Source: a virus
Lineage: Duplodnaviria > Heunggongvirae > Uroviricota > Caudoviricetes
Length of the DNA stretch: 44,348 nt
Direction: 5' to 3' (one strand)
Virus record (IMG/VR): IMGVR_UViG_2740892273_000003
Part shown: in pieces, positions 24,271-44,198 of the stretch
Numbering within the stretch: position 1 is the stretch's first letter
Layout of the letters: every line of letters starts with the position of its first letter
Notes under the pieces: model-generated
What the model was told of the DNA's origin: nothing
Databases searched by the model: none
The model's input: the letters and a program-made list of their open reading frames with translations, nothing else
Program-made: the position numbers and the translations under genes

Positions 24271-24294
24271 CAAAACCTCCTGACAAAGATACCG

Positions 24295-24310
24295 TGCGAC
24301 CACGGTCGCA
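24295..24310. repeat. sopC-like centromere palindrome copy 1 (TGCGACCACGGTCGCA)
   Basis: 16-bp inverted repeat with 7-bp arms TGCGACC/GGTCGCA; one of five copies in the window. Confidence 0.6.
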
Positions 24311-24514
24311 CGCTCCTGAATACATGCCCTGTTTCTTCCACCCTCGCACAGGACTGGCGAGCATGAGGGACAAACCCGCGAATCATTAGCGCGGTAAAAA
24401 CCCGGTGTGCATCGTTTTTGATTATTTCCGCACACTCGCGCAGAGGAGTTCCCCGTCGGGCTACGGTCATGGTTAATGCGGAAATACGGCGACGATGCAG
24501 CGCGGTATTTAATG

Positions 24515-24530
24515 TGCGACCACGGTCGCA
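24515..24530. repeat. sopC-like centromere palindrome copy 2 (TGCGACCACGGTCGCA)
   Basis: Identical 18-mer GTGCGACCACGGTCGCAC to copy 1, about 220 bp away in the same orientation. Confidence 0.6.
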
Positions 24531-24550
24531 CACGAGAAACAAAGAGATTT

Positions 24551-25868: not shown

Positions 25869-26137
25869 ATTTCCTTCGGTGCTCTCTTTCCCAATTCACC
25901 AATAACCATCGCCGTGGCGGAAATATTATTGGCATCAGTTTTATCCAATATGTCCTGCAATATCTTCGTGCGCTTCATCTGCTCGCGTTTATTGAGCCGG
26001 TATGTAAGTACACCGAGGATAATGCTGAACGCGACACCGATAATGAAGCCCCAATCCTGCAATGACAGGCTGGCAAAGAACGCAGTAAGACCAGCACTAC
26101 CATAAGATGCGCTGCTGTATCGTTCATCCATCTTCAT
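25865..26137 (-). CDS. S: Class II holin, pinholin-like (90 aa)
   Basis: Dual-start MKM..., two hydrophobic segments ([11 protein letters not shown] and [16 protein letters not shown]), charged C-terminus; immediately upstream of a SAR endolysin. Confidence 0.6.
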
Positions 26138-26232
26138 ATCTCTTACCTCGCAATAGTTGCTGAGGTTTCGGCTTGGAAACTATACGGCGAGAAATAACCC
26201 CATCAAAAACGGCAGGGGAATATATTCTTCAG

Positions 26233-27354
26233 TTACTCAAATAACTTTTTCACTTCATCAACTGTCTGAAGATAACGTTCACCCTCAATCTCAATACCGA
26301 TTGCCTGACGACCTAACTTCAGCGCGGCTTTAATAGTAGAGCCTGATCCCATAAAGAAATCGGCAACGATATCTCCGGGGCGGGAACTACTTTTTATAAT
26401 ATGTTCCATCATCGCTGCAGGTTTTTCACATGGGTGCTTGCCAGGATAATATTGCACAGGAGGAAACTCCCATACATCGGTATAAGGTACATCAGCAGTA
26501 ACATGAAATGGGCGGCGCAAATTTTCATACTGAGCCTTCAAATCATCATACTGCTTCTTTACTTCCTCATAACGCAATTTCAGATCGCTATAACGCTTTT
26601 CATGTTCTGAATAATCAACATTAAAAGGATATGGACACGGGACACCGAGTGAATCTGCCTTCCTGCGAAATAATTCGCATAGTTTATTAAAATCACTTAA
26701 TGATGGAAGCCGCCACTGCGAATAAGAAAACCAGTGCGAACACATCTGCTTTCCTGTTGCTGAATTAATGTCTGCGGCTGATATATCTAACTGACGGCGA
26801 GCCAGCGAAAAAGCATCAATTAGTGGAGAAAAAATATTTTTTCTTAAATCTGCACATTTTGAAGCATAACCTGACTGACCTTTAGCATAACCTGACGCGC
26901 CGTAATGCTCTGCAAATAATATTCTTTCAGTGGCAGGAAAATAAGCCCTTAAACTTTCTTTATGACAACCGCGCCACATACCACTGGGTTTAGCCCAAAT
27001 GATATGGTTCAGAACATTGAAACGGTCGCGAGTTAATAATTCAATTTTTGACGCAAGGCGAGAGCCGGTAAACATATACAGGCTGCCATTAGGGGCCAAT
27101 ATCCGCCAAAATTCTGCCAAAAATTCATCAATCCACCCCAAAAAGTCAGCATCGCTATCCCACTGGTTATCCCATGCGTTAGCCTTTACGCCGAAGTATG
27201 GTGGGTCTGTTGCAATCAAATTGACCGAGTTATCAGGGATGGTTTTGATAAATTGCAGAGAATCTGCGCAAACGAGTTGCGCGCCATGAATATTAGTGGT
27301 TTTGAACATAGCTATTATTTTTTTGCCTGGGTAAGCTAACCCGGCGATGCGCAT
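26233..27354 (-). CDS. Orphan DNA amino-methyltransferase (N6-adenine or N4-cytosine); true start may be the internal MFKTT
   Basis: DPPY motif near the N-terminus (LIATDPPYFG) and FxGxG AdoMet motif near the C-terminus (DFFMGSGST); no adjacent restriction endonuclease gene. Confidence 0.75.
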   Translation of the reverse strand: MRIAGLAYPGKKIIAMFKTTNIHGAQLVCADSLQFIKTIPDNSVNLIATDPPYFGVKANAWDNQWDSDADFLGWIDEFLAEFWRILAPNGSLYMFTGSRLASKIELLTRDRFNVLNHIIWAKPSGMWRGCHKESLRAYFPATERILFAEHYGASGYAKGQSGYASKCADLRKNIFSPLIDAFSLARRQLDISAADINSATGKQMCSHWFSYSQWRLPSLSDFNKLCELFRRKADSLGVPCPYPFNVDYSEHEKRYSDLKLRYEEVKKQYDDLKAQYENLRRPFHVTADVPYTDVWEFPPVQYYPGKHPCEKPAAMMEHIIKSSSRPGDIVADFFMGSGSTIKAALKLGRQAIGIEIEGERYLQTVDEVKKLFE

Positions 27355-27443
27355 CGCGGGTGGGCTTTAGGTTCAGCCTATAGCTCTGGCATGGGTTGAC
27401 CGCAGGACAAGCTGCAACTTGTCCTGCACCCACTTTTCAGGCA

Positions 27444-27467
27444 CAAAAAAACCGCCATAAAGGCGGC
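27444..27467 (-). terminator. Intrinsic terminator (tR'-like) between a candidate late promoter and the methyltransferase/lysis/virion genes
   Basis: Minus strand reads GCCGCC-tttat-GGCGG followed by TTTTTTT; preceded by hairpin GTTGGGT-tttttgt-ACCCAAC and followed by a 10-bp-stem hairpin GCAGGACAAG-n6-CTTGTCCTGC. Confidence 0.6.
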
Positions 27468-27505
27468 TTGTTGGCTGTTGGGTACAAAAAACCCAACTTA
27501 ACAAA

Positions 27506-27534
27506 ACAATAACTAAAAACCGTAATTTTGCCAA
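27506..27534 (-). promoter_or_regulatory. Candidate late promoter (PR'-like): TTGGCA, 17-bp spacer, TATTGT
   Basis: Sigma70-like hexamers on the minus strand ~30 nt upstream of the hairpin/terminator series; a centromere-like palindrome sits just upstream. Confidence 0.45.
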
Positions 27535-27554
27535 GCTTTTTCGTTTTTGTGCTG

Positions 27555-27570
27555 TGCGACCGTGGTCGCA
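27555..27570. repeat. sopC-like centromere palindrome copy 3 (TGCGACCGTGGTCGCA, opposite orientation)
   Basis: Same arms as copies 1 and 2 with the central dinucleotide GT instead of AC; extended palindrome CTGTGCGACCGTGGTCGCACAG. Confidence 0.6.
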
Positions 27571-27576
27571 CAGTTT

Positions 27577-27804
27577 TTAGAAAGTTGCCTGCTTATATTC
27601 ATCGGTCAAAGAATATCGACCAGACCCGCTACGCTTTGCAACCCCAAAACAGATCATCTGTTCGATGATAAATTCAACGGCAGCTTGACTCAAAAAACAG
27701 GCTTCGCTTAACTCTTTCAGGGAAATGCGTGGGTATCCACGCATAACACATTCCACACTCAGGGCCGCTTCAGTCATATTTCCACGAATTTCATTAATAT
27801 TCAT
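27577..27804 (-). CDS. Hypothetical small protein (75 aa), possible winged-helix DNA-binding protein
   Basis: ORF with a helix-turn-helix-like segment ISLKELSEACFLSQAAVEFI; immediately upstream of the candidate late promoter. Confidence 0.45.
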   Translation of the reverse strand: MNINEIRGNMTEAALSVECVMRGYPRISLKELSEACFLSQAAVEFIIEQMICFGVAKRSGSGRYSLTDEYKQATF

Positions 27805-27817
27805 AACGCCTCTCTAA

Positions 27818-28057
27818 TCAATCTTGAAACTGGAAATCAACATCAGCCATAAAGCGGTTCAACTCAGCCAGTTTTGGCCCCATAGTCCCAACTAAGCGAC
27901 CAGCCAGTCGGTCTGCCAGGTTGGTACTGTTGAAACCATATTCCTTTTCGAAACGTTCAACCTTCTGCCACAACTCATACAGTTCGTTAGCTATCTCCGC
28001 AACGTCGTCGCGCATTTTTTCGTTACCTTGATAATTCATAATATCCTCCAAATTCAT
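27818..28057 (-). CDS. Hypothetical acidic small protein (79 aa)
   Basis: ORF in an operon with the 75-aa gene; divergent from the toxin-antitoxin pair. Confidence 0.45.
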   Translation of the reverse strand: MNLEDIMNYQGNEKMRDDVAEIANELYELWQKVERFEKEYGFNSTNLADRLAGRLVGTMGPKLAELNRFMADVDFQFQD

Positions 28058-28204
28058 ATAGTTAGTGGGTTATTGCCCCTCAATGACACGAACTGTAACT
28101 CTGCCAAACGAACACATCCAGTGTTATTTTTCACTTTTTAGTGAAATTTTTAATTTGCGCTTTTTTCTTGTTTTGGTGTATTTTATGGCTATGGAGGCTA
28201 TAAT

Positions 28205-28516
28205 ATGTTTAACGTGATAACCCACCCTGCAGCACTGGATGAACTGCTTGAACTACCAGATGATTTGCGAGGTCGCATGACCAGATTAATTGAGCGACTG
28301 GAGAAGGAAGGCAACAAACTGAAGATGCCCCATAGCCGTGTAATAGGTGGAGGGCTTTTTGAACTACGAGTAGGGGATAAAAACATCGCAAGAACGCTGT
28401 ACGCCTACGCGACTGGTAACGAAATTTATCTATTGCATGCATTTGTAAAAAAGACACAGAAAACACCGGTGAAGGCTATTGAAATCGCCAGAACTCGCCT
28501 GAAGGAGATGAACTGA
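28205..28516 (+). CDS. Type II toxin, RelE/HigB superfamily (N15 gp49-like, 103 aa)
   Basis: Small basic protein resembling gp49-like/HigB toxins; GGAGG RBS 7 nt upstream; encoded upstream of an HTH protein with ATGA start/stop overlap; opposite strand to flanking phage genes. Confidence 0.65.
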   Translation: MFNVITHPAALDELLELPDDLRGRMTRLIERLEKEGNKLKMPHSRVIGGGLFELRVGDKNIARTLYAYATGNEIYLLHAFVKKTQKTPVKAIEIARTRLKEMN

Positions 28517-28803
28517 TGAAAGCGAAAGGCATCCCGTTTAACGAAGTAAAAGAAAAACTTCTCAACACTCCAGAAGCCATCAAAGGATATGAAGAGGCCG
28601 ATAAAGAGCTGGAGATGGTCGAAATGTTATACGAAATGAGGGAAAGAGCAGGTTTAACGAAGTCAGCTCTGGCTGAACGAATGGGATTGCGCCCGTCAGC
28701 TATCAGCCGCCTGGAAAGCAATCCTTTAGGGGCAAGCATGAAAACTTTATCAAAATATGCCCAAGCATGCGGTGCAACGATTAATATTAATGCCGTCTAT
28801 TGA
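28516..28803 (+). CDS. HTH (XRE-family) antitoxin, HigA-like (95 aa)
   Basis: Helix-turn-helix segment LTKSALAERMGLRPSAISRLE; translationally coupled to the toxin gene. Confidence 0.65.
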   Translation: MKAKGIPFNEVKEKLLNTPEAIKGYEEADKELEMVEMLYEMRERAGLTKSALAERMGLRPSAISRLESNPLGASMKTLSKYAQACGATININAVY

Positions 28804-28846
28804 TTAGACCCTTTTCGCTACCCCGTCCAGAAGGGCGGGGTGTGTA

Positions 28847-29065
28847 TCAATGATGCAAACACTCAACAGCAATAACTTGTTGGCAATTCTGAGCAATCTC
28901 CCGCGACATACTAACAAGTCGTGAAATCTCGCCAAGATGCAAGCTGGCTTCTGGAGAAGCCAGAGCAACGCTAACCAGATCCAAAACGGCGTCGATGTCT
29001 TTTAGGTTTGATCCGAGTTCTTCAAGAGTTGATACAGGTGCTTCAGTCATTGAATCTAATACCAT
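28847..29065 (-). CDS. Small protein (67-72 aa) downstream of a LexA box; candidate SOS-inducible antirepressor
   Basis: ORF with alternative ATGs at ~29065 and ~29050; a LexA-box-like sequence lies ~25 bp upstream. Confidence 0.45.
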   Translation of the reverse strand: MVLDSMTEAPVSTLEELGSNLKDIDAVLDLVSVALASPEASLHLGEISRLVSMSREIAQNCQQVIAVECLHH

Positions 29066-32672: not shown

Positions 32673-32973
32673 TTTCTTGTGCGACCACGGTCGCACCCTC
32701 TCTGATTTCCAAGTAACGCTTAATCCAAAGATTTTCTATATGCTTATTACCTGGCTGATTTGATAAATACCAATCGGCAATTACAGACTGCTTATTACTA
32801 TCTGGTCGTGTCCTGTAACCACAAGTTGGACACCAGATAACATATTCATTTCTTACCCCCGAATACCTTAATTCTGGCTTCGACGGTTTCCTGAACATAA
32901 CTTGTTTACAAAGGCAGAATGGCACTTCCTGCCCGATGGCGTTTGATGATTTCACTGCGCTTCTCCGCCGCAT
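32653..32973 (-). CDS. Hypothetical protein with zinc-ribbon-like motifs (106 aa as given)
   Basis: CxC...CxxC spacing (FCLCK ... WCPTCGY); start uncertain (internal MFRKP also possible). Confidence 0.4.
   Translation of the reverse strand: MRRRSAVKSSNAIGQEVPFCLCKQVMFRKPSKPELRYSGVRNEYVIWCPTCGYRTRPDSNKQSVIADWYLSNQPGNKHIENLWIKRYLEIREGATVVAQENENNAI
32680..32695. repeat. sopC-like centromere palindrome copy 4 (TGCGACCACGGTCGCA)
   Basis: Same 16-bp palindrome in the early-right operon, at the junction of two small ORFs. Confidence 0.6.
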
Positions 32974-33616
32974 TTAATAATGCAGTTCGATTTAAGCTCA
33001 GACATCGCGACTTAATTAAAAGCCAGCGTTCTTTATAATCTTGTCTCCAGCTATCAATAGATATATTCAGTAGAAAACTCAGATGCCTGTCCTGTTCTCT
33101 CTCATCAACTGCCTCAGCACACGTAAGTTCTGACTTAACCTGCTGTGCCGCGTAATAAATCAATTTTCTCATGGCTTTTTTCGTGGAGGCCTTCATTTTT
33201 TTAAACCCGCCACCCGAATGCGCAACCAGAAAATCAAGCCATAACCACTGACAAACAATCACATCATTGTTGTAGTCAGGCTTGCATCCGTAGCAATAAT
33301 AAAGCCAGGCTGATTCCTCGTTATTCAACTGACCAATAGCCCTGCGCCAGCTGGCGCTCTGAAAATCAATATCAGTGAGCAACATTGATGATTGTTTAAA
33401 TGTTTTGCCCTGGTGGAATCTAACCGGCTCAGCAGGAACAGACACTTCGTATGAGTTATCATCACCTACACTGATTGACCGGACTGGTTTATTGTTAAAG
33501 CGTCCTGATCTGCCTAGACGCATCTGCTCAAGCTGGACCTCTAGGATGCCACGCTGGCGATAATGAATATCAGCCAATGCCGTGGAGACGCAGCTGCGTA
33601 TATACTCAAGCTCCAC
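32906..33616 (-). CDS. Hypothetical protein (236 aa) translationally coupled to cro; possible late regulator, function not established
   Basis: ORF overlapping the cro 3' end; contains a CxxC pair (YYCYGC); no family recognised by eye. Confidence 0.45.
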   Translation of the reverse strand: MELEYIRSCVSTALADIHYRQRGILEVQLEQMRLGRSGRFNNKPVRSISVGDDNSYEVSVPAEPVRFHQGKTFKQSSMLLTDIDFQSASWRRAIGQLNNEESAWLYYCYGCKPDYNNDVIVCQWLWLDFLVAHSGGGFKKMKASTKKAMRKLIYYAAQQVKSELTCAEAVDEREQDRHLSFLLNISIDSWRQDYKERWLLIKSRCLSLNRTALLNAAEKRSEIIKRHRAGSAILPL

Positions 33617-33854
33617 GCTTACGGCTCTCCTTAATCGACTGCTTTACCCGCCGAGTTGTAAAGTCACTCTTCAGCTTGTAAGCAGTACGAACTTCAATAT
33701 CACTTTGCCGCAATGAAGGAATCTCTCCAGCGGTTAACCATTGGTAAACAGCACCGGGTGTTACACCTACCCCAGCCGCTGCTTTTTCTACACTGCCAAA
33801 GTGGCGAATAAGTTCTTCTGGTTTCATGCGGTTATTATAAGCAATAAATCGCAT
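33606..33854 (-). CDS. cro: Cro-like DNA-binding protein (82 aa)
   Basis: Small HTH protein (AAGVGVTPGAVYQWL) transcribed divergently from the repressor gene across an operator-containing 64-bp spacer. Confidence 0.7.
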   Translation of the reverse strand: MRFIAYNNRMKPEELIRHFGSVEKAAAGVGVTPGAVYQWLTAGEIPSLRQSDIEVRTAYKLKSDFTTRRVKQSIKESRKRGA

Positions 33855-34760: not shown

Positions 34761-37700
34761 ATGACATTAAACGATTTCTATGCGGATCGCTTTGGCAGCG
34801 ATCCGTTCTCGCTAATTGAAGCAGCACGGGATGAACTAACCGAGCTGGCACAGATGGCTGGTATCAACTGGTCTGCCTGTTCCGACAACATCCAACTCAA
34901 CCCTCGCGGGGGTGTTGAGCGTTACTCTTCATACAATAAAACATCCCCAGAAGCTCTCGAAAAGAGCCTCAAAGGACGCGTAGAAATTTACTCCCGGCTG
35001 GAACACAGCAAAGGGATTGATTACCCGTTCATTAACTTCGTCCATAAAGGCAGCGATGCTGGCTCATGGAGCGGTTTCTCCTTCCTGTTTTCTGAATATC
35101 GCCGTGAGCAACAACGGAATAATGCGACCGTGGTCGCACAACCGGAAGAAGAACGGGCAAGAATAGAACGTCAGGCCGAAGCACGTCGTCGCCGTGAAGA
35201 ACAAAAACGAATTAATGACCTGAAAAACAACCAAATGGACCATGAACGTTTGCTGGGATGGCTGGCATTCCACAGTGCTTGGGAACATGCTCCTGCAGAA
35301 GACGGCTCATGGCCATATGCGATTAAAAAAGGTATTCGTGACGTTTTTAATTCGTGTGATGTGCGTCGCGTGACCAGTCACGACAGCGCAAAATGGAGCA
35401 GGGGGCCAACCACGTATATGGCTATCCCTCTGGCTCACCTGGACGGTCGTTACGATGGTCGTATTGTTGGTTGGCAGCGAATCGACAAACAAGGTGGAAA
35501 ATACCAGACCAGCGCCGTAACCAGCGGCGATTTCGTCGGTGCCTGCTTTGTTATCGGTGAGCTGAAAGGGGCGCAAAACATCGCTGTTACAGAAGGTTTT
35601 GCTACTGGTGCATCCATCTGGCTTGCCACGAAAAAAGATAAACGCTTTGACGCTGTGGTTGTCGCTGTATCCGCTAACAACATGGTTCATGTTGTGGAAC
35701 AACTGGTAAACATGTACCCGGCGGCAAAAATCACCTGCGCACTGGATAATGACCGGAAATCAGCTACAGAAGGAAAAGGGAATACCGGCCTGCGGACTGG
35801 CTATGAAATCTTATCGAAATTCAACGATGTCCGCTGCGTCTATCCAACTTTTGAAGACGATCCGCAAATGGAGTGCAGTGACTTCAACGACCTGCACAAA
35901 CTACGTGGACTTCGTGAAACAGCACGTCAACTGTTTGCAACTGCAAACCGCCTGAAAACTGGCACTGATTTGCTATCTCTGACGCTCAACCGCCTGAAGA
36001 CAATTAAGCGGGATAACCGTCGTACTTTTGCCAAAGAGCTGCTGAGAGCAGTGGATATTGGCATGCTAACCTGTCCGGTTCCTAACAGTCCGTCAGACTT
36101 ATTTAACATGTTCTGCATCGTCCTGCGTGAAATTGGGCTGGAAAATATCTATCGCGCTACGGTAAAAGACCACATTGCCCGTCGCCTGAATAAAAAGTGC
36201 CGTATTGCCCAGGCTCCGCGCTCATTCAGCGAACGAATAACTGATCCCAATAAACGTCCTCAACATATCACCTATAAGCGTTTTGAAACTTCGGTAATGA
36301 CCGATGACGTCCTGAAGTATGTGCAATCACTACAGGGGATAGTCATCGTTCGTGCTGGTATGGGTTCCGGCAAATCTACTGGATTGTTACGACCTTTAAT
36401 GCATAGCTCAGAACGTGGTATCTCTGTTGCTCACCGTGTTTCCCTTATTGGTGGCCTGTGGGAAATGATGACAGAAGGAAAAGGTGTAAAAGCCGATATC
36501 CTGCACTATCAGGACCCTGGCTATCAGGAAATGGCTCCATACGCCAGTAAACTGACCATCTGCATAAACTCGATTGTTAAAAACTGCTGGCAACCATTGA
36601 TGCGCCAGCACGACTATTTTGGCTTTGACGAGGCCACGCAAGGGCTACGTGCCGTTCTTTCCGGTCGGGCTATGGAAAACCCGGTGGCTGTATTCAATAC
36701 GTTAATTGACGCGCTGGCCAGAACGGAACAACACCCAATAATGGTGGATGCTGATGCGAACGATCTGCTGGTTGACCTGGCTGAACTGGCTATGAAACGC
36801 CGTGAAGAACTAGGTTTACCGGCATGGCTGCAGATCCACGTAATTGAATTACCTGTTGATGTTCGCAACCGCGAAACAGGTGAGCCAATCCGGGTTTTTT
36901 ATACAGAAAAAGATCGCATTATGACCGAGGTGGTGAAAGCTGTATCGAATGGCGAAAAAATCATGTTGGCCACCGACAGCTCCACCTTTGCAGAAGATGT
37001 GACCGCCACCCTGAGAATGCATTTTCCTGGTAAGAAATTTCTGTGTGTAAACCAGAAAAACAAACCAGAGCCAGAAGTTGAAGCATTTACCAATCAACCG
37101 AAAAAGATGGTCAAAAAATACGACGGCCTGATTTATAGCCCGTCTATTTCATCCGGTGTGTCGATTGAGCAAAAACATTTTGACCGTCATTTCGGCATGT
37201 TCTGTGGTGAAGTTGTACCCAGCGACGCAGTGCAAATGCTACGCCGCGACCGTACAGCAAAAGAATTTATTATCGGCTTTGATAAAGCTCGCGCAAAACG
37301 TGAAACTGACCCGCAAAAAATAGAACGAGCATTCGCCCAGGCATTGCTTGCTACCGCAGGCATGAACGGTGAACTGACGGATGTCGTTTTCGATGGCGAC
37401 CGTATATCAATGGGGGTGGCCAATACCGACTTTACCAGGATGAAAATTAAAGCAGCCGCAATTGAAGCGTCTGCGCGTAACGACTACGCCAGCAACATGA
37501 TCTGCATCATGCACAGCGACGGTTATAAGGTATCGCCGCTGGCCACCGATTATGCTGCGAATGATATCGGTAAAGATCTGCGTAAAGAAGCGCGGGATAT
37601 TGTGTGGGAACAGACACTGGATCTGCATCTCAATACAGAAACTCCACAAGAATCAGAGCGTGAAGAACTGCTAAAAAAACGCGCGCTGACGCTTGAAGAA

Positions 37701-42296: not shown

Positions 42297-44198
42297 TTAA
42301 CCGAAATATGTCAGCCATGCTAACTGCATTGCTGACATGGGGCTGTTTGCACTGCCGGACCACGCATAATTCTGGCCATTATAATGAAACTCAACAACGT
42401 ATGAGCCATCACCAATATTTCTCACCGGCTTAAATACCGGCTTAGATACAGGCGAAGAAGGTGCAGGCGGTTGCTGTTCTTCTACGCTATCTTCCTCTTC
42501 CTCTTCCTCTTCCTCTATCTCAATTTCGTCGTCATCCAGATCGTCATCCTCTGATAATTCATCCGCCAGTTCAGGTATTGCTTCCAGTTCTTCTTCGTCA
42601 GGCATAACGATTTCTGGAGTATCTATTTTCAGTTGCCATTGTCCGTTTTCGCCAACAAATTGCCCCAGAGCATCAGCAGCAAATTCCAGGTATCGACTAA
42701 TCATTGTTGGGCTAAATTTGAACGCTCTTAGAGTGCTGTTCGTGATTTTTATAGAGGGGTCCTGCTCTACCAGCTGCTTAACTGTGTTATGCAGACGAAC
42801 CCCGGCATCTCCTCTGGCGAATCCAGGCATTTCGTCATCAAGCTGCTGCAATGCTTCCAGCCTGGTATTTTCGTTTCCAGTATTTGGCCTCCATGTCTTT
42901 GAGAAGTTGGCCAGCTTGAATTGCTTATAGTGTAATTGAGTGTTTTCATCGTCATGGCCTAAAATTTCCATAAAGAAAACATCTTCATCTACGTTTTTCC
43001 AACGAGGATCTACGCGGAAAAACATTTCATACGCAATACGGGCATAAATAGCACGACTATCTTTATAAACACGGCGGTCATCTTTGAAAAATGATTTAAC
43101 CCACGGGTTAAAAGCCTTTGCTAATATGGCATTAATACGTCCGTTTTCAGAGCGTGTGTCGTTATCTCCATAACCTTTAACGACATCATCAAAATCAGAT
43201 GCTGCTGGGCATGAGCGAAGTACATTTATTAAATAAACAAATGTTTTTGCTTCGCATAATGTATATATTTTTCTGGTTATATCATCAGAAGTTCTTTTTT
43301 TAGCTTGGCCTAAAAAATCAACGGTATACTTACCAGAAACAGTAAATGTACCTTGATACATAATCTCAATCATTCGTCTTCCTGACAATGCAGCAAGTGC
43401 AAATGCCAAAGGAGCCATACCTGAACGAGTGTTTAGATTATTTAATGTAGCAGGGCTATTTATAATATCGTAAATAGCTTGCATATATTTAGGGTAATCA
43501 ATGACCACCACGTTACGTTTCTTATTGTGCAGAACGTCCGCCCATCGTTGCTGGATAGATGCACGTTCGGCAGGGCTTAGTTGAAGATGATAGAGAATCT
43601 CATGGTTAACTTTTAGCTGATTCAACTCCTCAAGTAAGGCAGATCCTTGCTGTAGTAATTTATATAAATAATCGCGCTTATCTTTCCAGTTATCGCTGGT
43701 TAAATCAGAAATGGCGAATTGCCACTCTTTATATTTATTTGATAATTTCAATAACTTATTATGACTTTTGTTATCGCCAATTCTGATATTAGATAAATCT
43801 TCTGATAGAGGGAGAATTAATTTTAATTTTGCCTGTAAAGCTGACATTCTCTGGCGAATATCGGCAGCAGGTAGAGAAAGCCATGACAATAGCTCCTCAT
43901 TATATAAAGGATACTTTTCAGATAGGCGATGTATATTTTTTTCAAAGCTATGATGAAGTTTATCATCAAACCGTTTTCTGGCCCTGCTCATATAGGCATT
44001 GAATGTGTTGGCTGTAATTCTTTTTTCTAATCCTTTCCCCCTAAACTTTCGCTTGTCATTAAATAATGCATTTTTAAATTTTAATGCAACAGCCTTTATT
44101 TTTTTTGTTTTCTCCCCTTGAGGACGGTCAGAGTTATCTATTGACTCAACATCGCTAACAAGTGAGTTTATTAATTCACCGATTTTTACTTTGCTCAT
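42297..44198 (-). CDS. telN: Protelomerase (telomere resolvase), TelN-like (633 aa)
   Basis: N-terminus MSKVKIGELIN..., internal blocks such as RITANTFNAYMSRARKRFDD and WRPN..ENTRL, and a C-terminal acidic tract match the N15 TelN protein as recalled; length is close to the 631-aa N15 protein. Confidence 0.8.
   Translation of the reverse strand: MSKVKIGELINSLVSDVESIDNSDRPQGEKTKKIKAVALKFKNALFNDKRKFRGKGLEKRITANTFNAYMSRARKRFDDKLHHSFEKNIHRLSEKYPLYNEELLSWLSLPAADIRQRMSALQAKLKLILPLSEDLSNIRIGDNKSHNKLLKLSNKYKEWQFAISDLTSDNWKDKRDYLYKLLQQGSALLEELNQLKVNHEILYHLQLSPAERASIQQRWADVLHNKKRNVVVIDYPKYMQAIYDIINSPATLNNLNTRSGMAPLAFALAALSGRRMIEIMYQGTFTVSGKYTVDFLGQAKKRTSDDITRKIYTLCEAKTFVYLINVLRSCPAASDFDDVVKGYGDNDTRSENGRINAILAKAFNPWVKSFFKDDRRVYKDSRAIYARIAYEMFFRVDPRWKNVDEDVFFMEILGHDDENTQLHYKQFKLANFSKTWRPNTGNENTRLEALQQLDDEMPGFARGDAGVRLHNTVKQLVEQDPSIKITNSTLRAFKFSPTMISRYLEFAADALGQFVGENGQWQLKIDTPEIVMPDEEELEAIPELADELSEDDDLDDDEIEIEEEEEEEEDSVEEQQPPAPSSPVSKPVFKPVRNIGDGSYVVEFHYNGQNYAWSGSANSPMSAMQLAWLTYFG

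Follow-up and report, generated by a model that had tools for sequence, protein, structure and literature searches.

The segment at positions 27443-27572 of the window (the whole 44,348-nt stretch of viral DNA analysed here, IMG/VR record IMGVR_UViG_2740892273_000003) is very probably the Q-dependent late-operon switch of an N15-like linear plasmid-phage. This assignment is based on the sequence elements present in the segment, on their conservation, on orthology with N15 and phiKO2, and on the family to which the Q protein of the window belongs. For this phage we infer the start site, the pause element, the location of Q binding, read-through by Q and the effect of SopB as follows. Host sigma-70 RNA polymerase would start at the promoter at 27534-27506 on the minus strand, make an RNA of ~55-57 nt with a 5' hairpin, and stop at the terminator at 27469-27443, leaving the methyltransferase, lysis, packaging and morphogenesis genes off. 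Because this terminator stands between the promoter and the first late gene, late expression would need read-through. Upon derepression of the early operon, the Q82-family antiterminator, translationally coupled to cro and encoded 5.4 kb upstream, would be made and would load on the polymerase near the promoter, most likely while sigma-70 holds it at TAAGTTGGG around +1. The Q-modified polymerase would then pass the terminator into the methyltransferase, lysis, cos, terminase and morphogenesis genes, while the SopB palindrome, centred at -63.5, would tie the plasmid partition protein to the late promoter.

Elements and conservation of the late control region

The window carries genes for a protelomerase (42297-44198), a cB-like repressor and cro, together with lambda-like terminase genes and lysis genes, and is therefore an N15-like (Ravinvirus) linear plasmid-phage. 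Over the stretches compared it was ~99.7–100% identical to Escherichia phage YDC107_1 (Ravinvirus); in one comparison PhiR46_1 and YDC107_1 both matched it at 100% across 26200-28200, and one base differs in the 321 nt around the late region. The YDC107_1 record also shows an apparent inverted duplication around the protelomerase gene. The late genes are all on the minus strand, so the control region is to be read on that strand. Within the late operon the methyltransferase gene is followed by those for holin, lysozyme and Rz, by cos and by the terminase genes.

Read on the minus strand from 27572 to 27443, the segment consists of a SopB-type palindrome, a sigma-70 promoter, a small 5' hairpin (hairpin 1) and an intrinsic terminator with a U7 tail (Table 1). 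The promoter-like hexamers, hairpins and strong terminator that the first-pass annotation had described at 27440-27576 are thus all present in this orientation, and the centromere-like site that it had placed just upstream of the promoter is a genuine N15-type SopB palindrome. Together, the -35 and -10 hexamers match the consensus at 9 of 12 positions, the TTGGCA being invariant across all N15-type relatives, and the A-rich segment ahead of them may be a UP-like element. Six bases follow the -10 hexamer before AAGTTGGG, with the predicted start at the A at 27499. The terminator stem (27469-27449) and the U7 tract (27451-27445) lie 30-56 nt past this start, which predicts a terminated RNA of ~55-57 nt, and the terminator ends ~135 nt upstream of the methyltransferase gene, the first of the late genes.

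Table 1. Positions in the window of the elements of the late control region and of the genes discussed with it.
Feature	Positions	Strand	Basis and annotation
gp51-like (75 aa) and gp50-like (79 aa) genes	27577-28057	-	directly upstream of the control region; named gp51 and gp50 in relatives
SopB-type palindrome TGTGCGACCGTGGTCGCACA (TGTGCGACCACGGTCGCACA in minus-strand reading)	27553-27572		N15 IR3 orthologue; phiKO2 homologue is the 'putative plasmid partitioning site'
Conserved A-rich segment GCACAAAAACGAAAAAGC between palindrome and -35	27535-27552	-	alignments of 8 and of 45 relatives
-35 hexamer TTGGCA	27529-27534	-	promoter scan; equals the annotated minus_35_signal of N15 and phiKO2
17-nt spacer AAATTACGGTTTTTAGT	27512-27528	-	variants tabulated among relatives
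-10 hexamer TATTGT	27506-27511	-	promoter scan; aligned with minus_10_signal TATCTT (N15) and TATCGT (phiKO2)
Candidate sigma-70-dependent pause element TAAGTTGGG	27492-27500	-	-10-like TAAGTT at -1 to +5, then GGG at +6 to +8
Hairpin 1 (+3 to +23): GUUGGGU, 7-nt loop, ACCCAAC	27477-27497	-	folding; 7-bp stem
Intrinsic terminator (tR' analogue) AAGCCGCC-UUUAU-GGCGGUUU	27443-27469	-	terminator scan and folding
Conserved, highly structured segment (~130 nt)	27310-27440		between terminator and methyltransferase start codon
DNA methyltransferase, first late-operon gene	26233-27309	-	Pfam N6_N4_Mtase, E=1e-46; ORF map; YDC107_1 annotation
Q antiterminator gene (236 aa, Q82 family)	32906-33616	-	PF06323; phrog_304; tblastn to N15 Q and phage 82 Q
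cro	33606-33854	-	Pfam P22_Cro, E=2e-22

In the 10 kb scanned, promoter-like sites (15 versus 13.9 expected from shuffles) and terminator-like sites (11 versus 10.0) both occurred at chance frequency. The significance of the control unit lies instead in its fold (z = -5.2 for the first 124 nt of the transcript), its site upstream of the late genes, its conservation and its correspondence with N15 and phiKO2, not in matches to a consensus. The correspondence is base for base, and covers the annotated late promoter, terminator and partition site of N15 (AF064539, 41162-41250) and phiKO2 (AY374448, 45384-45510). In the N15 record the 'putative rho-independent terminator' AACCGCC..GGCGGTTTTTT, the minus_35_signal TTGGCA and the minus_10_signal TATCTT occupy exactly aligned positions, while in phiKO2 the 'putative late promoter', the terminator and the 'putative plasmid partitioning site' coincide with elements of the window. 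An earlier reading of the region as lambda-style, Q-dependent PR'/tR' control is supported by this orthology, by a terminator that follows its own promoter ~135 nt before the late genes, and by the presence of a Q82-family gene.

Conservation was assessed in a BLAST-collected set of eight sequences (N15, MStein-2023a, phiKO2, three Klebsiella phages, PY54 and the window) and in a larger set of 44 distinct sequences that added loci from pattern scans of IMG/VR and GTDB. Since GTTGG and the terminator's 3' half were both part of the scan pattern, their conservation in the larger set follows by construction; the other features conserved there count as independent evidence. In the eight-sequence alignment, the conserved blocks were the palindrome, GAAAAAG-TTGGCA, the -10 hexamer, TTTTTCTA(A/T)GTTGG and the terminator; both the invariance of the terminator (8/8) and the presence of TA(A/T)GTTGG (8/8) were seen here independently of the scan pattern. 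All 44 sequences had a good sigma-70 promoter with a 17-nt spacer and a -10 hexamer ending exactly 6 nt ahead of A(A/T)GTTGG, so that the order -35, 17 nt, -10, 6 nt, A(A/T)GTTGG, 5' hairpin, terminator forms a fixed geometry among these relatives. Control-region homologues were found in 210 plasmid records. The GTDB pattern scan mostly returned unrelated terminators, and its genuine-looking loci were only three, from Enterobacterales.

Transcripts of gp50 and gp51, two genes of the same strand whose ends lie 24 nt ahead of the palindrome core, would run into the terminator. Taken with the chance frequency of promoter-like hexamers, this could be read to mean that the terminator just ends the gp50-gp51 unit and that the hexamers are an ordinary or chance promoter of the methyltransferase gene, without any role for Q. 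We consider such an arrangement extremely improbable, as the terminator follows the conserved promoter and would cut short the transcripts made from it, and as the promoter-hairpin-terminator geometry is fixed in the 44 relatives, including some, such as L083 and L103, with a different upstream context. Furthermore, a Q82-family gene is present for which there is no other candidate target, and the annotators of both N15 and phiKO2 assigned the same late promoter.

Hairpin 1 was found in all 24 distinct variants of the region, with 23 G-U pairs, each of which would become a C-A mismatch if the opposite strand were read, and its fold was more stable on the minus strand than on the plus strand in every variant but one, where the two were equal. 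Since these G-U pairs work on the sense strand only, they are direct comparative evidence for use of the region as minus-strand RNA made from an upstream start, in agreement with the assigned promoter. Conservation of hairpin 1 as a sense-strand RNA structure, like the sRNA-gene anatomy of the unit, would also suit a stand-alone gene for a trans-acting small RNA of ~56 nt, with the late genes driven from elsewhere. There is very little likelihood of this, as no other promoter/terminator pair lies between the unit and the late genes, and an Rfam search of 26000-29000 (E<=1) gave no family at its gathering score (AgrB, 27.3 bits versus 40; RyhB, 26.3 versus 55). ARAGORN likewise found no tRNA or tmRNA genes. 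Lambda-type late promoters also yield a short terminated RNA, the 6S RNA in the case of lambda, and this too counts against a separate small-RNA gene.

The Q gene and the predicted loading of Q

The first-pass annotation had recognised no Q gene next to the late control region and had left the 236-aa protein coupled to cro as the remaining candidate. Q is indeed not adjacent, its gene lying 5.4 kb and ~13 ORFs upstream of the late promoter (27534-27506) that is its presumed target, but it is easily recognised. The 236-aa protein matched Pfam PF06323 ('Phage antitermination protein Q') with 283 bits (cutoff 25; E=2e-84), residues 2-229 of 236 aligning with profile positions 2-219 of 220, and matched phrog_304 ('anti-termination protein Q-like') with E=2e-72. 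In tblastn comparisons it was 67% identical to the N15 protein annotated 'Q: antiterminator' (U45242) and 28% identical, over 93% coverage, to phage 82 Q (X92588; E=8e-21). The ORF overlaps the end of cro by 11 nt; N15 Q is annotated at the same position, adjoining cro (U45242), and the YDC107_1 record calls an ORF of identical length 'phage antitermination Q family protein'. Judged by family membership, the ORF beside cro is unambiguously a Q82-family antiterminator. Q proteins fall into three unrelated families, of which PF06323 is the Q82 family, and the mechanism of the latter is stated to be open (PMC9388147). A PDB sequence search with the 236-aa Q returned no relative.

By contrast with this clear assignment, the 75-aa and 79-aa proteins encoded immediately upstream of the control region matched no Q family in Pfam and PHROG searches, and neither of them is a Q. 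The PHROGs that they matched are of unknown function; the 75-aa protein had weak winged-helix/HTH Pfam matches and nothing else, and the 79-aa protein had no Pfam match.

The candidate pause element contains TAAGTT, the sole -10-like element in the early transcribed region of the window. In lambda the -10-like pause hexamer is AACGAT, at +1 to +6. The lambda element has GGG at +7-9 and a pause at +16, while in phage 82 an extended -10-like element is accompanied by GCC at +15-17, and the polymerase pauses on a U at +25 (PMC5001585). The phage 82 promoter was reconstructed for this comparison from the near-identical PhiR47_2, in which TTGCAA-17-TATATT is followed by TGaTATTTT and GCC at about +6 to +17, and which fits the published description of phage 82. 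The pause geometry of the window thus appears lambda-like, with a pause predicted near +15/+16. As the candidate pause element is at -1 to +5 here versus +9 to +14 in phage 82, the geometry of loading may differ from either model.

TA(A/T)GTTGG(G/C) is invariant even in the PY54 class, in which Q identity is only 31%. Constancy of the motif despite this divergence is as expected of a site read by host sigma-70, not of one read by Q. Because GTTGG doubles as the 5' arm of hairpin 1, its conservation may have a second cause. The Q-binding element of lambda and of phage 82 sits in the spacer between -35 and -10 (PMC4914094). Among the relatives of the window, it is the upstream half of this spacer that varies between phage subgroups whose Q proteins differ, and we regard the spacer AAATTACGGTTTTTAGT as a candidate Q-binding element.

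The partition site and the structured element beyond the terminator

The core of the palindrome upstream of the promoter (GTGCGACCGTGGTCGCAC, 27554-27571) matches the N15 SopB sites IR1-IR4 (PMC7205306, Table 4), and the IR3 oligonucleotide of that study is the N15 site beside the late promoter. A pattern search of the window found five such sites, at 24294, 24514, 27554, 32679 and 35122 (0.02 expected by chance), four of them exact and the last with 1 mismatch. No ParA or ParB genes were found among the window ORFs checked; sopAB is probably outside the window, whose two ends are formed by the protelomerase gene and by tail genes.

The position of the site relative to the predicted start was compared among the 44 relatives. 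In the N15-type class (core GTGCGACCNNGGTCGCAC) its centre is at -63.5 (±1), whereas in the PY54-type class, which has a core of the F sopC type (TGGGACCNNGGTCCCA), it is at -52.5, and once at -51.5. The Klebsiella phages carry a second copy of the N15-type core, centred at -110.5. The centres of the two classes are 11 bp, or one helical turn, apart, and the site has therefore kept its helical face while the ParB specificity changed. This retention of helical phase across two ParB specificities may be new. That the site is retained next to the promoter fits a published claim on Sop and late expression: the title of a study by Ravin, Rech and Lane (2008, J Bacteriol 190:3538; cited in PMC11652158) credits the N15 Sop system with facilitating late gene expression.

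Centres at -63.5 or -52.5, one helical turn apart, are also typical positions for an activator, and gp51, with its weak HTH match, is encoded adjacent to the palindrome. It could thus be proposed that the main switch for the late genes is not antitermination but an activator bound upstream, with SopB at the palindrome and gp51 as the two candidates. This seems very unlikely to us: an activator would leave the terminator 55 nt downstream unsolved, the -35 and -10 hexamers are already good (9/12), and one relative, L091, keeps both the promoter and the terminator while having no palindrome. An auxiliary role for SopB, on the other hand, belongs within the Q-dependent switch rather than competing with it.

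Between the terminator and the methyltransferase gene, the structured segment contains a long covarying hairpin (plus-strand coordinates 27402-27427) above a lower stem (27393-27396 with 27428-31) and a 5-nt bulge. Compensatory changes were seen in 8 of the 11 upper-stem pairs, 97.9% of cells were paired versus 82.4% in shuffles, and the covariation score of 0.48 versus 0.18 was reached by none of 500 shuffles; sliding the partners by 1-3 columns abolished the pairing. Stems were assessed from per-sequence folds and a minus-to-plus re-alignment, since RNAalifold failed for most stems on the mixed alignment of N15-type and PY54-type sequences, in which registers were shifted. A coding leader was rejected, as the groups differ by single-base indels and the in-frame ATG of the group to which the window belongs is absent from the other group.

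The pairing in this element fits the plus strand better. Standard pairs in the hairpin and lower stem made up 98.4% of cells on the plus strand versus 90.7% on the minus strand, and of the wobble cells, 26 (in six column pairs) suited the plus strand and two (in two column pairs) the minus strand, a polarity opposite to that of hairpin 1. The plus strand is also locally G+T-rich at the element, against the trend of the flanking genes. Its folding energy was lower in 27 of 27 variants; this is largely an effect of composition, the shuffle-controlled z-scores of the strands being similar (-4.9 and -4.2), and was not used as evidence for the strand. At the same time, no relative has a sigma-70 promoter for a plus-strand RNA (at least 8/12 matches, within ~135 nt), and on the plus strand the hairpin is followed by just a short, unconserved U-run. 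The element at 27310-27440 matches no Rfam family, and when a second pattern scan looked for it beyond the N15-like phages, the hits were all chance matches within coding sequence.

The covarying element of ~130 nt, which may be new, could be either a sense leader or a convergent antisense RNA. We tentatively suggest, as a possibility that is rather doubtful at present, that 27310-27440 specifies a plus-strand RNA converging on the short transcript of the late promoter and, separately, that the phased ParB/SopB contacts the late transcription complex directly. If so, the plus-strand RNA could act in cis as an antisense lock on leaky methyltransferase, holin and lysin transcripts in the plasmid-prophage state.

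Prior knowledge and comparison with known systems

Reading the region as a Q-dependent late control region is correct, and such a region is already known here, because the sequence is in GenBank, the corresponding features of N15 and phiKO2 are annotated, N15 Q is annotated by cro (U45242), and a connection of Sop with late expression has been published. Full-text literature searches for descriptions of the N15 late promoter returned reference-list citations only, and a 2025 paper on telomere phages contains no transcriptome data. In terms of annotation, the late promoter, the terminator, the Q gene and one centromere site are now fixed for a family of phage-plasmids common in E. coli and Klebsiella; in the records deposited for the closest relatives these features carry no annotation. 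The separation of Q from its target and the fusion of a partition site to the late promoter restate a known oddity of N15-like phages. To this the comparative data add the helical phase of the partition site over two ParB specificities and the structured element after the terminator; the Q82 family, for which a sequence search gave no solved structure, is of remaining interest.

N15 is the closest of the known systems. With N15, and also with phiKO2, the window shares the order of gp50-gp51, palindrome, TTGGCA-17-TATNNT, AAGTTGGG, 5' hairpin, CCGCC/GGCGG-U7 terminator, structured leader and methyltransferase gene. In N15, Q (gene 40) likewise adjoins cro and is remote from its target; over 272 nt the two regions are 83% identical, and the N15 centromere site is IR3. 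The two differ in that Q is only 67% identical, in that the upstream half of the spacer is AAATTACGG in the window versus AAACAGCTA in N15, and in that hairpin 1 has a perfect 7-bp stem in the window but wobble pairs in N15.

The PR'-qut-t82 region of phage 82 also combines a sigma-70 promoter with a nearby terminator upstream of the late genes, and its Q is of the same family (PF06323, of which Q82 is the type member). However, the phage 82 promoter overlaps the 3' end of Q, whereas Q is 5.4 kb away in the window; its pause element is TGaTATTTT with GCC at +9 to +17 and the pause at +25, compared with TAAGTT at -1 to +5 and GGG at +6 to +8 in the window; and it has no partition site.

The logic of PR'-qut-tR' in lambda is the same, with a pause-like element at +1 to +9 in lambda and at -1 to +8 in the window, but the lambda Q protein belongs to an unrelated family (PF03589; PMC9388147). 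The terminated RNA of lambda is ~194 nt long (termination at +193; PMC4914094), compared with ~56 nt in the window, and lambda has no centromere site. In the usual lambdoid order Q lies immediately upstream of the promoter, an order that the mechanism does not require and that is found neither in the window nor in N15.

Compared with the sopC/SopB system of the F plasmid and with IR1-IR4 of N15, the palindrome of the window is of the N15 type, while the corresponding position in PY54-type relatives is occupied by the F-type core TGGGACCNNGGTCCCA. The site upstream of the late promoter in the window is a single copy fused to that promoter rather than a tandem centromere array, and its role is presumed to be regulatory as well as in partition.

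A structured element beside the methyltransferase gene

The stretch between the late terminator and the start codon of the methyltransferase gene was found to contain a conserved, covarying, structured element. Its long hairpin carries compensatory changes in 8 of 11 pairs, a degree of covariation reached by none of 500 shuffles. Wobble cells fit the plus strand far better, with 26 compatible with that strand versus 2 with the minus strand. A sigma-70 search of the window and its relatives found no plus-strand promoter for the element, and an Rfam search found no family for it.

In the surroundings of the late control region, the window differs from its relatives YDC107_1 and PhiR46_1 solely at 27428, within the lower stem of this conserved hairpin. 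On the plus strand the window has A here, a base shared by none of the other 19 aligned relatives: 18 carry G, and L091 carries C. This A turns a U-G pair into a U-A pair in plus-strand RNA, and a C-A mismatch into a U-A pair in minus-strand RNA.

In relatives of the PY54/Klebsiella class, ATGAAAAACACTGTAAAAATAAACAGTGC, in the first ~30 nt of the methyltransferase open reading frame (alignment columns 370-400), is near-invariant in nucleotides and contains a hairpin (CACTGT..ACAGTG); the codons that follow it are variable. These features suggest that an RNA or DNA constraint overlaps the start of the methyltransferase gene in this class.

Annotation and assembly of related records

In the N15 record (AF064539), gene 52 (methylase) is annotated as starting ~230 nt downstream of an ATG (41393 versus 41621) that aligns with the methyltransferase start of the window and other relatives. 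N15 gene 52 may have been annotated too short. The YDC107_1 record (CP025712.1, 34650-38833) contains protelomerase open reading frames in both orientations, around 36.6-37.5 kb, a pair that looks like an inverted duplication arising from assembly through the hairpin telomere.

Neighbouring genes and SopB-type palindromes

The run of minus-strand genes from the early operon to gp50-gp51 is broken by a plus-strand pair encoding Gp49 (HigB-like) and HTH_3 proteins (28205-28803), whose promoter region holds an inverted repeat, CACTTTTTAGTG (28120-28150). Here Rfam gave a RyhB-like match that is probably due to chance, at 26 bits where the gathering score is 55. For the Q82-family protein (32906-33616), a sequence search found no relative among solved structures (best match E=0.82); the mechanism of this family has been named as an open question (PMC9388147).

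Positions of the structured element and the palindromes in the window
Feature	Window position	Strand	Location and remarks
Structured element, ~130 nt	27310-27440	both	late terminator to methyltransferase start codon
ParB/SopB palindrome	27553-27572		adjoins late promoter; centre -63.5 in N15-type phages
SopB-type palindrome	24294-24311		between lysis genes and cos/Nu1
SopB-type palindrome	24514-24531		between lysis genes and cos/Nu1
SopB-type palindrome	32679-32696		just downstream of Q
SopB-type palindrome, 1 mismatch	35122-35139		within repA-like gene

The palindrome adjoining the late promoter was compared across relatives L001-L134, among which one (L091) lacks it at this site. Klebsiella phages have a second copy by the late promoter, centred at -110.5 relative to the predicted start site. 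In PY54-type phages the palindrome has an F sopC-type core, TGGGACCNNGGTCCCA, and its centre, at -52.5, lies 11 bp closer than in N15-type phages.
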